Assembly (NCBI GenBank): GCA_038153405.1 | Contig: JAYOYH010000004.1 | Span: 64,001-128,000, forward strand | Direction of reading: 5' to 3' | Length of the DNA: 64,000 bases | From: Gemmatimonadota bacterium | GTDB lineage: Bacteria; Latescibacterota; UBA2968; UBA8231 | Shown: piece by piece, positions 34,562 through 43,007 of the stretch | How the letters are laid out: each line of letters opens with the position of its first letter | How positions within the stretch are numbered: position 1 is the stretch's first letter | Notes under the pieces: generated by a model | What the model saw: only the letters and a program-made list of their open reading frames with translations | Database searches by the model: none | What the model was told of the DNA's origin: nothing | Made by a program: the position numbers and the translations under genes

Positions 34562-35374
34562 CTATTGGCTGCGATCCTGTTTTCCAATAGCCCTGAGAAT
34601 CACCGCCTCGGCCCACTGCGGCCACAGCGCGTAGACAGCGGCCAACAGCTTGAGCTTCCAGGGCATCACCAACTGACGCGGGCGCTCCCGCATTGCGCGG
34701 GCAATCCGCGTGCTGGCTTCTTCTATAGTGATCGACTCACTGCTGTGGCGGCGCGACGTCTGCCCCAGCGCGCGGCCGTCTCCACCAAGTGCGCTCTGGC
34801 GTAGGTTGGTGCCGCGCAGCCAGTGCGGCAACACGACCATTACATCGACGCCAGTACCGCGCAGTTCCAAGCGCAGCACATCGCAAAAACCCTGCACGGC
34901 GTGCTTGGACGCTACGTAGCCACTGTGCAGCGGTACGGGGACCTTTCCCTGCACCGACGACACGGCGACAAAGAGTCCCCGGCTGGCTTTGAGATGGGAC
35001 AGCGACGCGTGTGCACAGTGCACTACGCCCATATAGTTGACGTCCATCAAGCGCCGAAATACATCGGTGTCTTCAACCTGATCAAAGCGCACCCACATGC
35101 TGATACCGGCGTTAGCAACGACAAAATCAATTCCATCCCACGCCCGCTCAGCCGCCTGCATAGCAGCGCGCACGTCGTCTATGCGCGCCACGTCCCCCAC
35201 CTGCACCAGCACGTCGACACCGCGTTTGCGACATTGGGCGGCAACTTCTTCCAAGCGCTCGAGATTGGTAGCAAAGAGCACCAGTTTGGCGCCCTGAGCG
35301 GCTAGCTCCTGCGCCAGCGCTGCGCCCAGACCAGACGAAGCGCCGGTCAGCACGACCCGCTTGTCTTTTAGCAT
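34562..35374 (-). CDS. Short-chain dehydrogenase/reductase, DHRS7/DHRS7B-like
   Basis: TGASSGLG, NAGIS, SSVQGK, catalytic YVASK(HA); overlaps the 3' end of the AGPS-like gene by 7 bp. Confidence 0.9.
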   Translation of the reverse strand: MLKDKRVVLTGASSGLGAALAQELAAQGAKLVLFATNLERLEEVAAQCRKRGVDVLVQVGDVARIDDVRAAMQAAERAWDGIDFVVANAGISMWVRFDQVEDTDVFRRLMDVNYMGVVHCAHASLSHLKASRGLFVAVSSVQGKVPVPLHSGYVASKHAVQGFCDVLRLELRGTGVDVMVVLPHWLRGTNLRQSALGGDGRALGQTSRRHSSESITIEEASTRIARAMRERPRQLVMPWKLKLLAAVYALWPQWAEAVILRAIGKQDRSQ

Positions 35375-37140
35375 AGAGGATCGCCGAATGCGCCGTTGCC
35401 TATCGAAAAAATGTTATTGGGATCCATCGCGCGCTTGGCCTGGCGCAGCACTTCCATGCCATTGGCACTATGCACCTGGGGCAAGAACGCGCGGCGGACC
35501 TTGCCGACGCCGTGGTGATGCGAGAGCGAACCGCCGTGATCGAGCACTATCTGGCGCAGCGCGCTTTCGACGTCGTGGTAGACGTGCTCGGGGTCGTCGA
35601 GACCAGCACTTGAAAATGCCATGGTAAAGTAAATACACACGCCGGTGTGATAGGTCTGAGTGACGCGGAACGAAAGGTAGGGCTTGCCCTTAACGCCGCG
35701 CTGCTGGCACTCGTCCCACAGACACGTGCGAACAGCCGAGGTCACATCTAAAATGCGATCCCACGGAACAGAGGTTTCAAATGTCTCGCCGAGAATGCCA
35801 AATTGGTTGAAGAAGTCGCGTATATAGGCAATGCCAAAGGTCAGCATATAGCCGCGCTGCCCGTTGCTTGCACCGCCGGAGATAGCGCCAAACTTCTTGG
35901 CGGTAGAGAAGATGATCTTTTCTTGGTGCTCCACTTCGCTGGCTGTTCCCTCCATGGCAATGGTGCAAGCAGCTAGCTCATTGGCGTCAAACCCCTTTAC
36001 CTTGAACAGAAAAAAGCGCTGAATGCGCTGCTCGATCTTTTTCAGGCCCACGGCCTCGGGCTTTAGCGCTTGACCGAAGCGAAACTCGTTGTTGTTGACC
36101 AGGCGAATGCTGGCCGGCAGCACGCCCTCACGCTGGCGCAGCTCTTTTAAAAATGCCACGCCCGTGGTGAAATTGGGAAAAACGAGCGAACCGAATTTAC
36201 GCACCTTGGGCAAGGGGTAAATTTTGAGCACGGCCTTGGTTATAATGCCAAAATTGCCCTCGCTGCCAAAGAGCAGACCGCGCGGCTGCACGCCCGTCGA
36301 GTTGCGCGGCGTCGCCCGCAGTGTTTCCACCGCACCCGTCGGCGCAATCAGCGTTGCTTCGAGCACGATGTCCTCTATATTGCCGTACTTGTTTTTCTTC
36401 ATGCCGCTGGCGTTGGTCGATATCCACCCACCCAGCGTCGACAGCTCAACGCTATCGGGGTCGTGTCCCGATGTATAGCCCTGCGATTCCAGTTCGCGCT
36501 CTAAATCGCGCCCGCAAATACCCGCCTCGACGCAGGCCATTAGGTTGTCTCGGTCGAGCGACAGAATCCGGTTCATACGACTCATATCGACCGAGGCGAT
36601 TGGCCGCGTCTCCCCGCTGCGCAGCGACAGTGCACCGCTGACGTTGGTGCCGCCACCGTAGGGCACTAAACAAACGCCGTGAATATTGGCCGCTTCTACA
36701 ATACGCTGTACCTGCTCTTCGCTTTGCGGGTAGAGCACTAAGTCGACAAAGCGTTCTAAAGGGGCGCCATACAACACCCTATACACCTCGTTGACGCTGA
36801 GCTGGCCGTGGCTATGGCGCAGCCGCTCGGCATCGGAGTCAACCATTTGATCCTCCGCGAGCACCGCCCTCAACTGGGCGATAAAGGCGACATTTTGCCG
36901 GGCCGGCGGCAGTGGGTCATGCGCTCGCTCGGGCAACACGTCCTGAGGACGAAAAGACGTGCCGAGCACGTCTTCTGCAAAGGGAATGAAATAGGGCATG
37001 GTATAGCCGCAGATGGGATAGCGATTGCCCGTCACCCGCACGCTGCCCTCGTCGACAAACTCAAAGCGCGTGTCGGTATATCCCCATTTATGAGCGTGAC
37101 GCTCGCCTGCCTCGTACGAATAGCTCCCGTTGCCTCTCAT
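35368..37140 (-). CDS. agpS: Alkyldihydroxyacetonephosphate synthase (AGPS/ADPS)-like FAD enzyme
   Basis: KWGY, GHDPDS.E.STLGGWIST.ASGMKKN.YGNIED, PASIRL, NGQRGY.LT..IAYIRD, RVTQTY..G.CIYF, GGSLSHHHGVGK; these match animal AGPS as remembered. Confidence 0.85.
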   Translation of the reverse strand: MRGNGSYSYEAGERHAHKWGYTDTRFEFVDEGSVRVTGNRYPICGYTMPYFIPFAEDVLGTSFRPQDVLPERAHDPLPPARQNVAFIAQLRAVLAEDQMVDSDAERLRHSHGQLSVNEVYRVLYGAPLERFVDLVLYPQSEEQVQRIVEAANIHGVCLVPYGGGTNVSGALSLRSGETRPIASVDMSRMNRILSLDRDNLMACVEAGICGRDLERELESQGYTSGHDPDSVELSTLGGWISTNASGMKKNKYGNIEDIVLEATLIAPTGAVETLRATPRNSTGVQPRGLLFGSEGNFGIITKAVLKIYPLPKVRKFGSLVFPNFTTGVAFLKELRQREGVLPASIRLVNNNEFRFGQALKPEAVGLKKIEQRIQRFFLFKVKGFDANELAACTIAMEGTASEVEHQEKIIFSTAKKFGAISGGASNGQRGYMLTFGIAYIRDFFNQFGILGETFETSVPWDRILDVTSAVRTCLWDECQQRGVKGKPYLSFRVTQTYHTGVCIYFTMAFSSAGLDDPEHVYHDVESALRQIVLDHGGSLSHHHGVGKVRRAFLPQVHSANGMEVLRQAKRAMDPNNIFSIGNGAFGDPLC

Positions 37141-37174
37141 GAGCTCACTCCGTCCTTCCATCGTTTGACAATGA

Positions 37175-37918
37175 TCAAAATTCAGGCAGTTCAGCCAATT
37201 CGCTACCTGCCATATTGTCGCCCCGACAGTGCCACACGCGGTGCGAAGCATTGCGCTCGGCCAGCACCTTCGAAGTCAAGGCAAAATAGCGCATGGTGTA
37301 GCCGCAGCGACGCATGGCGCTGCGATTGGCCGCCGCGCCGTGGACGATGCGCGCGTCGTGCAGCGAGCATTCGTTGGGCTGCAGTTCAAAGTAAACAGCC
37401 TGCGACTCGTCGAGTTGGTCGGCGATGATCTGCCGTGGAAATGTGTTGTTTTCGCGATCGACTTCTTCGTAATCGGAAAATCCGTTGACCTGCGTGCCGG
37501 GCAACACGCGCATACAGCCATTGTCGCGCGTAGAGGGATCGATAGCCAGCCACACGGTGACGATCTGATCCATTCTATCCATGCGCCCGTTCCAATAGGC
37601 GGAATCCTCGTGCCAGGGCGTGGCGCGCCCAACCATCGGCTCTTTGCAGATAAAGTGGCTACTCCACAGCCCGATGTGAGGACCGATAAACGGCTCGACG
37701 AGGTCGAGCACCTCATCGGCGAGCAGAAACTCAAATAGAGCCGGGCAAGTGAAGTGAGGCACGTCGAGTTGGTCGGCGCGCCGACCGTCCTCTTTAGCGG
37801 CCAGCAGTCCCTCGAAGAGCGCGGTCAAGCGGACAAATTTATCATCGCTAAAGAGCGGGCTATTGTGCAGCCAATAACCATTTTCTTTATAGAATTTGGC
37901 GGCGTTATCCGCGAGCAC
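37175..37918 (-). CDS. PhyH family dioxygenase
   Basis: YKENGY, SSHFICK, PWHEDSAYW, WLAID..T.DNGC, HGAAAN..RR; GTG start with AGGAGG RBS. Confidence 0.9.
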   Translation of the reverse strand: MLADNAAKFYKENGYWLHNSPLFSDDKFVRLTALFEGLLAAKEDGRRADQLDVPHFTCPALFEFLLADEVLDLVEPFIGPHIGLWSSHFICKEPMVGRATPWHEDSAYWNGRMDRMDQIVTVWLAIDPSTRDNGCMRVLPGTQVNGFSDYEEVDRENNTFPRQIIADQLDESQAVYFELQPNECSLHDARIVHGAAANRSAMRRCGYTMRYFALTSKVLAERNASHRVWHCRGDNMAGSELAELPEF

Positions 37919-41963: not shown

Positions 41964-43007
41964 ATGCGGATAAAACACGTAGCGGCTCTAGCCTTGCTGA
42001 CAGTTATAATCCAGACGCCTCCCGCCGAGGCAAACGGACGCAAGGAGCAACGCGGGATTGGGGTCGAACAGCTGGGACTGAGCGAAGAGCAGCAAGCTCA
42101 ACTAGAAGCCATACGCACAGCGTTTGACGCGCGCGCACAAACGCTGCGCGAGACGCACAAATCTGATGAGCTAGCGGTTTTGAGCGAAGAGCAGTTGGCT
42201 ACGCTAACGGCCTACCGGAGCGAAGAGAATGGACGCGCAGGTCATCGCATTGACCTAGGTCTCAGCGAAGAGCAAATGGCCGCGATAAGGGACCTCGGCG
42301 CCGCCTATAAAGAGGCGCGCACTGCACTCCAACAAGCGCGCAGAGAGGCCGTGGCCGCCCTGCTAACCGACGAGCAGTTGACCGCACTTGCCGCGCTGCG
42401 CAACCCGCCATCAATGCGCGGTCAGCGCATTTCCCTAGCCGAACGGCTGGGACTCAGCGCAGAACAACAGACGGAGCTCACGGCGCTGCGCACAAACTAT
42501 GCCGAGCGCGCACAGGCGCTGCACGAAGCGCACCGAGCCGACAAACGGTCCGTTCTAACAGAGGAGCAGCTAGCCGCGCTGATAGCCTATCATAGCGAGG
42601 GACATCGCCGCGGCGACAAACATCTCAACTTGGGTCTGAGCGACGATCAGATCAGCTCCATTAACGATCTCGACGCGACCTATCGCCAAGCGCGCACCTC
42701 CCTATATGCAGCCCATCAGGAAGCTGTAGCTGCCCTGCTGACCGAAGAGCAATTAGCCCTACTCGAAGCGCTGCACAGCGCGCCGCCGTTTCGCGGCATC
42801 CACCGCGGTCGACATGGATATGGCAATCGCGTCGAAGCAAACAGGGGCGGCGGTGCAAACGAATCCATCGACGGGCTTGCCGATCCCGGCACTGGCGAAG
42901 GGCAGACGGGTGAATCTTCCCTGCTGTGGTCCGGTGCCAGCGAGTTGACAACCGCAGTAGAAAACACCCGTTGGGGACGCATTAAGAACGACCTTTTGAG
43001 AAAGTAA
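41964..43007 (+). CDS. Secreted Spy/CpxP (LTXXQ)-repeat protein with C-terminal TAVE..WG.IK motif
   Basis: Signal peptide ending AEA; eight LSEEQ/LTDEQ-type motifs in two ~120-aa repeats; AGGAG RBS. Confidence 0.75.
   Translation: MRIKHVAALALLTVIIQTPPAEANGRKEQRGIGVEQLGLSEEQQAQLEAIRTAFDARAQTLRETHKSDELAVLSEEQLATLTAYRSEENGRAGHRIDLGLSEEQMAAIRDLGAAYKEARTALQQARREAVAALLTDEQLTALAALRNPPSMRGQRISLAERLGLSAEQQTELTALRTNYAERAQALHEAHRADKRSVLTEEQLAALIAYHSEGHRRGDKHLNLGLSDDQISSINDLDATYRQARTSLYAAHQEAVAALLTEEQLALLEALHSAPPFRGIHRGRHGYGNRVEANRGGGANESIDGLADPGTGEGQTGESSLLWSGASELTTAVENTRWGRIKNDLLRK

Follow-up and report, generated by a model that had tools for sequence, protein, structure and literature searches.

AGPS-containing operons in bacteria are known from Myxococcus xanthus, where MXAN_1676-1675-1674 encode AGPS, FARAT and an epimerase-type NAD protein (10.1101/2025.10.10.681575; PMC9131029). 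The former source describes this operon and reports that an AGPS tree could not be resolved, and Latescibacterota do not appear in the accessible main text of the PNAS version (PMC13012113). The animal peroxisomal pathway includes FAR1, GNPAT, AGPS, DHRS7B/PexRAP and DHRS7. Mammalian DHRS7B and DHRS7 reduce alkyl- and acyl-dihydroxyacetone phosphate (DHAP) with NADPH, and acylation of glycerol-3-phosphate (G3P) predominates in animals (PMC13200781). A third system is the myxobacterial elb cluster (ElbA-E), in which the function of M. xanthus ElbC was reported as unknown (PMC9131029). Homologues of agps and elbD have also been described in metagenome-assembled genomes (MAGs) of Latescibacterota, Poribacteria and Acidobacteriota from sponges, a habitat of the phylum in which C14-C18 monoalkyl glycerol ethers occur (10.64898/2026.06.23.733905); elbD-like clusters are known from sponges (PMC9426513), and distant agps homologues in bacteria have been mentioned (PMC13159169). 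Bacterial AGPS (Myxococcus) and agps matches in Latescibacterota (the 2026 preprint) are already known; the accessible text of that preprint mentions neither a short-chain dehydrogenase/reductase (SDR) as partner nor a new acyltransferase, says nothing of GpsA, PlsX and PlsY being lost, and ties agps to plasmalogens. In the present study, we analysed a stretch of 64,000 nucleotides (the window; G000:C4:64001-128000) from a Latescibacterota genome (GCA_038153405.1, here G000, 93% complete, with C numbers for its contigs), in which an AGPS-clade flavin adenine dinucleotide (FAD) enzyme is followed by an SDR. The phylum name follows the nearest named relatives, MAGs that bear the labels Candidatus Latescibacterota or Gemmatimonadota.

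The FAD enzyme (P0001, 590 aa; 35368..37140, minus strand) is an open reading frame (ORF) with similarity to characterised AGPS, and the classical SDR (P0002, 270 aa; 34562..35374, minus strand) scored above the PRK06181 cut-off in the family profile search. A first-pass annotation, made from the letters alone, had quoted eight AGPS motifs from the first protein, five motifs from the second and a 7-bp overlap between them. All of these motifs stand in the translations, and the overlap was confirmed as ATGCTAA (35368..35374, minus strand), with the SDR ATG within the last AGPS codons, a layout of the kind that typically goes with translational coupling. A GGAG Shine-Dalgarno-like site (37148..37151, minus strand) lies 7 nt ahead of the AGPS ATG at 37140, and for this reason we preferred that start to a longer 627-aa ORF. 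The annotation had read the pair as two consecutive ether-lipid steps in a bacterial operon; the AGPS identity and the pairing hold, and an AGPS operon in a bacterium was already known from M. xanthus. The AGPS-SDR module is real, conserved and larger than the annotation had seen.

From the genes, folds, residues and linkage described below, we consider it probable that AGPS and SDR are what is conserved of the later half of an acyl-DHAP pathway of four genes, with predicted activities, and that this pathway is the main phospholipid entry in the class. A 631-aa acyltransferase with a PlsC fold would acylate DHAP in place of GNPAT, and a 544-aa fatty acyl reductase (FAR), assigned by its family, would supply the fatty alcohol. 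AGPS, which has the expected residues, would exchange the acyl group of acyl-DHAP for the fatty alcohol through the flavin-adduct ping-pong mechanism of its family. Judging from gene context, the SDR would then reduce the C2 ketone with NAD(P)H to 1-O-alkyl-glycerol-3-phosphate, and it may also reduce acyl-DHAP to lysophosphatidic acid and so serve ester lipid. A 226-aa PlsC-like enzyme, CdsA and the PgsA, PssA and PIP-synthase-like enzymes, whose genes are present in the source genome, could complete the lipids. The four predicted reactions and the AGPS residues are those of the animal pathway. The predicted products are alkyl ethers and not plasmalogens, because CarF/PEDS1 (PF10520) gave no match in the source genome, in a search whose controls gave no match either.

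The identity of the first enzyme is the firmest part of this reading. P0001 matched guinea-pig AGPS (PDB 4bby) with 512 bits (E 1.9e-152, residues 18-579 on 95-653), Dictyostelium ADPS with 300 bits and other FAD oxidases with at most 99 bits. It carries FAD_binding_4 and FAD-oxidase_C domains, and its similarity to AGPS extends along the whole length, as had been claimed. Residues H226, R346, R441, Y504 and H541-543 align to H300, R419, R515, Y578 and H615-617 of the guinea-pig enzyme (counted along the 4bby alignment; PDB 4bca differs at Y578), and the active-site Arg and Tyr and the HHH loop of AGPS are all present. Among the best 80 of 346 AGPS-related loci found, R346, R441, Y504, H226, H542 and H543 were kept in 80/80 and H541 in 79/80. 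We take R352, R447 and Y508 of the Dictyostelium enzyme to be the counterparts of the mammalian residues. Catalytic weight has been assigned to these three (PMC3509576) and to AGPS His616/617 (PMC13019191). A generic GlcD/D-lactate-type oxidase would agree with the best NCBIfam match of P0001, which is GlcD, but this match reached 159 of 568 bits, far under the cut-off. The bit scores to AGPS and to other oxidases, the kept active-site residues and the position inside the AGPS clade leave that assignment practically no probability, and it is ruled out as far as sequence reaches.

The AGPS trees were a 137-row FastTree and a 55-row IQ-TREE quick tree (LG+G4), the latter with rows hand-chosen from the relatives and with fragments below 480 covered positions left out, except four added eukaryote-like rows. 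In both trees the family splits in two. P0001 groups with mammal, oomycete, heterolobosean, diatom and Myxococcota rows, and diplonemid and actinobacterial rows fall in a separate clade. The label of animal-type enzyme is thus right for a broad clade that includes myxobacteria, diatoms and oomycetes, and wrong as a strict sister relation to mammal AGPS, which was rejected by the approximately unbiased test (p-AU 6e-27; 55 rows, a partial mammal row, a group named after the tree was made, and a constraint that united the P0001 clade with the mammal row and the row next to it). In this respect the locus differs from the animal pathway. A Myxococcota AGPS scored 548 bits against 4bby, above P0001, and by sequence P0001 is an AGPS of the broad animal/myxobacterial kind and not specially animal-like. 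A hydrophobic N-terminal stretch was found in 97 of 120 AGPS relatives; P0001 and its genus are without it. AGPS of the same clade also occurs at Chloroflexota loci L060-L064, L070 and L072, with no adjoining SDR or FAR, and P0248 from a gammaproteobacterial MAG (MDF2866949.1) is a fusion of a PlsC-type acyltransferase with AGPS.

P0002 has TGASSGLG, S140 and Y153xxxK157, the classical Ser-Tyr-Lys catalytic set of SDRs. Four of the 80 loci are cut by contig ends; in 58 of the 76 testable loci an SDR lies at most 2.2 kb after AGPS, and in 39 of 41 single-contig class genomes with AGPS it lies at most 2 kb downstream, so that the pairing suspected earlier is conserved. A single clade (SH-aLRT 100) unites the SDRs linked to AGPS in Latescibacterota, Poribacteria, Marinimicrobia and Acidobacteriota/Planctomycetota; it includes P0002 and shares HWLRGTNLR and a basic RRHSSES segment. 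The AGPS partners of these SDRs likewise group in the AGPS trees. In Terriglobia another SDR subfamily stands beside AGPS, and at a Myxococcota locus an epimerase-type NAD protein follows AGPS-FARAT, as in M. xanthus. This repeated recruitment of an NAD(P) enzyme beside AGPS fits the chemical need for alkyl-DHAP reduction, and from its gene context P0002 is likely an acyl/alkyl-DHAP reductase. The Terriglobia loci (L069, L071, L075, L077 and L085) combine the different SDR with a myxobacterial-type AGPS beside PlsY and a gene for an acyl carrier protein (ACP)-synthetase-acyltransferase; most also have a lipid kinase, and one such genome gave no GpsA match.

It may be objected that the AGPS is as stated and the SDR is employed otherwise, in the conversion of fatty aldehyde to alcohol or in a lipid-modifying oxidoreduction, while another enzyme reduces alkyl-DHAP. 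PRK06181-type SDRs are common in bacteria without a known AGPS link, the Chloroflexota AGPS loci have no SDR nearby, and the orthology of P0002 to DHRS7B consists of motifs that the first-pass annotation presumed the two to share. In its tree P0002 falls into a broad group of loose internal branching, which holds plant 11-beta-HSD-like proteins as well as bacterial proteins (36-37% identity) that JGI labels 'SDR family member 7B'; animal DHRS7B was not among the 120 P0002 matches listed. However, the SDR tracks AGPS and not FAR, being absent from genus g15 (0/5) and family f2 (0/3), where FAR and acyltransferase are kept. Furthermore, a C2 reductase is needed without GpsA, and no other linked candidate is present. 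We therefore regard another job for the SDR as quite improbable.

The DHAP acyltransferase and the fatty acyl reductase, which the annotation had noted as absent from the window, were both found on other contigs of the source genome. The FAR (544 aa; G000:C1:140549-142183; PF07993 and PF03015) matched a plant FAR structure with 240 bits and is the only strong FAR in the genome. The acyltransferase (631 aa; G000:C39:35396-37291) has a weak PF01553 match and is one of two PF01553 proteins there, the other being the 226-aa PlsC-like protein. By sequence it does not belong to the GNPAT/PlsB family for which a search had been proposed, and this again sets the locus apart from the animal pathway. 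It had no NCBIfam match and no PDB sequence match, searches with the acyltransferase domains of FARAT or ElbD did not recover it at E 1e-4, and its Atlas cluster is unnamed, the next matches being PF01553. In its model (predicted local distance difference test score, pLDDT, 79) the C-terminal part adopts a GPAT/AGPAT fold and the N-terminal part is helical. The fold matched PlsC (5kym) with Z 13.7 (root-mean-square deviation 3.3, 216 aligned), GPAT1 with Z 9.9 and plastid GPAT with Z 8.4; the N-terminal 340 residues gave just short helical-bundle matches (Z <8) and none in Foldseek at E 0.001. In the HX4D-type motif, HQSVFD in the source genome, H430 is invariant and Glu replaces Asp in many relatives. 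The gene of the 226-aa PlsC-like protein lies in a co-oriented run with an acyl-CoA synthetase and a distant LarA-like gene (G000:C10:44875-51207).

The order FAR, 630-650-aa acyltransferase and AGPS was found in 19/80 loci, with the SDR next in 18 of these, and the FAR and acyltransferase of the source genome are the best matches of those operon genes. Among the families of relatives (f1-f4), the four-gene operon is whole in the sister families f3 and f4, where the acyltransferase directly precedes AGPS in 21 of 22 single-contig genomes, and it is split in f1, where AGPS-SDR alone remains paired. In the M. xanthus operon, too, a fatty acyl reductase and an acyltransferase accompany an AGPS from this broad clade, and the layout of that operon was recovered at L067, L079, L080, L082, L083, L087 and L088. 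Compared with it, the FAR here is separate or lies within an ElbD-like protein, the acyltransferase belongs to an unnamed 630-650-aa family, and the NAD enzyme is a classical SDR, with no CarF match. In many f1 genomes the FAR is the start of a 1400-1480-aa ElbD-like protein, a likeness to the elb cluster. The source-genome FAR is 64% identical to one such protein, and it resembles a truncated ElbD because an ElbD-like gene stands at the same place in G135. Unlike the elb cluster, the source genome has a free 544-aa FAR with no C-terminal part of ElbD at that locus, and neither a close HAD nor a close LarA-like partner was found in it, so that the combination of a four-domain ElbD with ElbB, ElbC and ElbE is not seen.

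In other lineages AGPS stands beside, or is fused with, alcohol- and acyl-supplying enzymes. Marinimicrobia-type loci (L036, L048, L068, L073, L074 and L078) have HMG-CoA-reductase-like, short PlsC-like, AGPS and SDR genes in a row; this is a third architecture, in which a probable FcrA-type fatty acyl-CoA reductase would replace FAR. An HMG-CoA-reductase-like fatty acyl-CoA reductase, with AGPS nearby, has been reported (PMC11948995). Polypeptides of 2100-2700 aa (P0269, P0275, P0288 and similar) combine ACBP, FAR, acyltransferase and AGPS, in many cases together with a DegT-type domain, and look like all-in-one ether-lipid synthases; P0269, from the diatom Thalassiosira profunda (KAL9182467.1), is the only named row among them.

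The pair might instead serve to salvage or break down ether lipids from a host or the environment, in which case the linked lipid kinase would be an alkylglycerol kinase. In several loci the operon is followed by a YegS/DAGK-family kinase, and in the source genome (L096; G000:C1:134084-142183) the FAR is divergent from such a kinase, which is followed by MlaD-domain and ABC-transporter-like genes. But an operon with FAR and acyltransferase has a biosynthetic layout, and in G072 it adjoins plsX-less fatty-acid genes (fabH-, fabD- and fabG-like ORFs), so salvage has only the slightest probability.

The distribution of these genes suggests more than the first-pass annotation had seen. We compared 168 genomes of the phylum, namely the source genome, 131 others of its class and 36 outside the class. 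In the 131 class genomes AGPS was found in 122, acyltransferase in 129, FAR in 127 and SDR in 118; the corresponding numbers among the 36 others were 1, 2, 3 and 1. In profile searches with detected positive controls, GpsA was found in 0/131 class genomes and 29/36 outside, and PlsY likewise in 0/131 and 29/36. PlsX scored over the cut-off in 1/131 (G145, with 3 more under the cut-off) and in 33/36. None of the three was found in the source genome. This absence, the larger point missed earlier, also separates the class from M. xanthus, whose route is minor. The pattern is probably one loss plus two cases outside the class (G008 and G031). Of five AGPS-SDR genomes outside the phylum, three have GpsA (two Marinimicrobia-type, one Poribacteria) and two do not; the loss is thus not general. 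In a class without GpsA and PlsY and nearly without PlsX, the acyl-DHAP route is likely the main phospholipid entry and would give sn-1 alkyl ethers.

Several observations weigh against this conclusion, and some of them favour a different reading, in which AGPS and SDR yield an ether lipid of minor importance, like that of M. xanthus, and the bulk of the phospholipid comes from free G3P (through GlpK, reversed GlpD or an unrecognised dehydrogenase), the 631-aa enzyme being an sn-1 G3P acyltransferase. Glycerol kinase (GlpK) is present in the source genome, beside GlpD, and in 70/131 class genomes. The source genome also has PgsA, which requires G3P. The acyltransferase matches GPAT1 and plastid GPAT in structure and occurs in AGPS-less genomes too. 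In M. xanthus, MXAN_1676 serves a minor route, and loss of AGPS lowers ether lipids only slightly (PMC9131029). However, the 19 single-contig f1 genomes, in which GlpK was found in 0/19 and GlpD in 0/5 tested, all retain AGPS, SDR, FAR and acyltransferase; the five without GlpD and GlpK, which have no GpsA either, are left with no recognised source of free G3P. In addition, AGPS-less genomes carry a substitute cassette, described below. We consider a minor ether route unlikely.

Other points tell against the main phospholipid role proposed for the acyl-DHAP pathway. In structure the acyltransferase comes closest to PlsC, which is an sn-2 enzyme, and at the place of the PEG motif usual in the family it has YPAGT. 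It adjoins AGPS in 0/19 single-contig f1 genomes, and the four genes of the source genome are spread over three contigs. P0002 has Thr after strand 2, where most relatives have a basic residue, which bears on the cofactor. G034 retains GpsA, PlsX and PlsY beside the operon. The genomes are kin, so the counts are not independent, and the activities in the proposal are predicted from genes, folds, residues and linkage.

The source genome also has a GGGPS above the cut-off (G000:C88:4039-4713) and DGGGPS-like (C9:48455-49144) and G1PDH-like (C4:41981-43336) genes, both under it. It could be argued from them that the class dropped GpsA, PlsX and PlsY owing to archaeal-type isoprenoid ether lipids, with the AGPS module as an accessory. 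In a subset of 57 class genomes (56 at least 95% complete, and the source genome) GGGPS was found in 57/57. But GGGPS and DGGGPS were reported in all 12 surveyed phyla of the FCB group (PMC6431249) and hence give no explanation of a class-specific loss. Strong G1PDH-family matches (E <1e-20) were found in just 3/57, and PlsC-type acyltransferases are kept in 57/57, with a single short match in most f3/f4 genomes. This makes the explanation very improbable; an archaeal-type lipid route may nevertheless stand beside the AGPS route in the source genome.

Nine class genomes are without AGPS. Six of them encode a protein with a Lar_N domain (LarA-like, about 515 aa long); the remaining three genomes are fragmented, with a completeness of 75-91%. 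Such a protein is also present in G008 and G031, outside the class, which makes eight AGPS-less genomes in total, and the gene was found in 0/124 AGPS genomes. Neither GpsA nor PlsY was found in any of the eight. The genes of G037 and G039 run from acyl-CoA synthetase through FAR, acyltransferase, HAD and Zn-dehydrogenase to LarA-like; in their relative G038, AGPS and SDR occupy that slot and are followed by a similar small gene. The Zn-dehydrogenase adjoins the LarA-like gene in 5/6 loci inspected. In AGPS-less relatives these two genes and HAD stand next to FAR or ElbD, a further likeness to the elb cluster. We infer two alternative modules that form the ether and reduce C2, one made up of AGPS and SDR, the other of the LarA-like protein and the Zn-dehydrogenase. 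The restriction of the LarA-like gene to AGPS-less genomes points to it as a candidate for the ether-forming enzyme of the Elb pathway. A bolder proposal, which we advance tentatively and which may well prove too strong, is that in this class an obligatory DHAP route replaces the G3P/PlsXY route, that membranes are largely sn-1 alkyl ethers, that the acyltransferase family is new and the SDR is the first identified bacterial alkyl-DHAP reductase, and that the two modules are interchangeable, with the LarA-like protein as the missing flavin-independent ether-bond former of Elb. If true, a bacterial lineage would start its phospholipids from DHAP and not from G3P, by a route regarded as eukaryotic and secondary. 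These bacteria would be candidates for the source of monoalkyl glycerol ethers in sponges and marine samples, and they offer enzymes that can be tested as a bacterial DHAP acyltransferase and an alkyl-DHAP reductase. The wider pool of bacterial AGPS bears on the proposal that the eukaryotic pathway came from myxobacteria, and the AGPS-or-LarA pattern makes it testable how the Elb pathway builds the ether bond without AGPS. A literature search of mostly non-subscription papers found none on the operon of four genes, its acyltransferase, the loss across the class or the exchange of modules, on a LarA-like protein paired with elb, or on the diatom all-in-one fusion.

Around the pair, a PhyH-family dioxygenase gene (37175..37918, minus strand) lies 34 nt upstream of AGPS. 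PhyH genes were near AGPS in just 7/80 loci, two of which, from close relatives, have a PhyH-AGPS fusion (L017 and L018; P0011 and P0013), and this gene is one of 44 phmmer matches in the source genome. Its membership in the pathway was rejected, and it is probably a passenger. Downstream Gfo/Idh/MocA and enolase-family genes are conserved only in close kin among the related loci. In three RNA runs of a single study (shares 0.06-0.17), short exact contig pieces fell on both genes and on the neighbours too; no piece spanned the AGPS/SDR overlap, and expression and co-transcription are thus not shown by these runs. Elsewhere in the window, positions 41964-43007 encode a secreted-looking protein of 347 aa with LTXXQ/Spy-like repeats.

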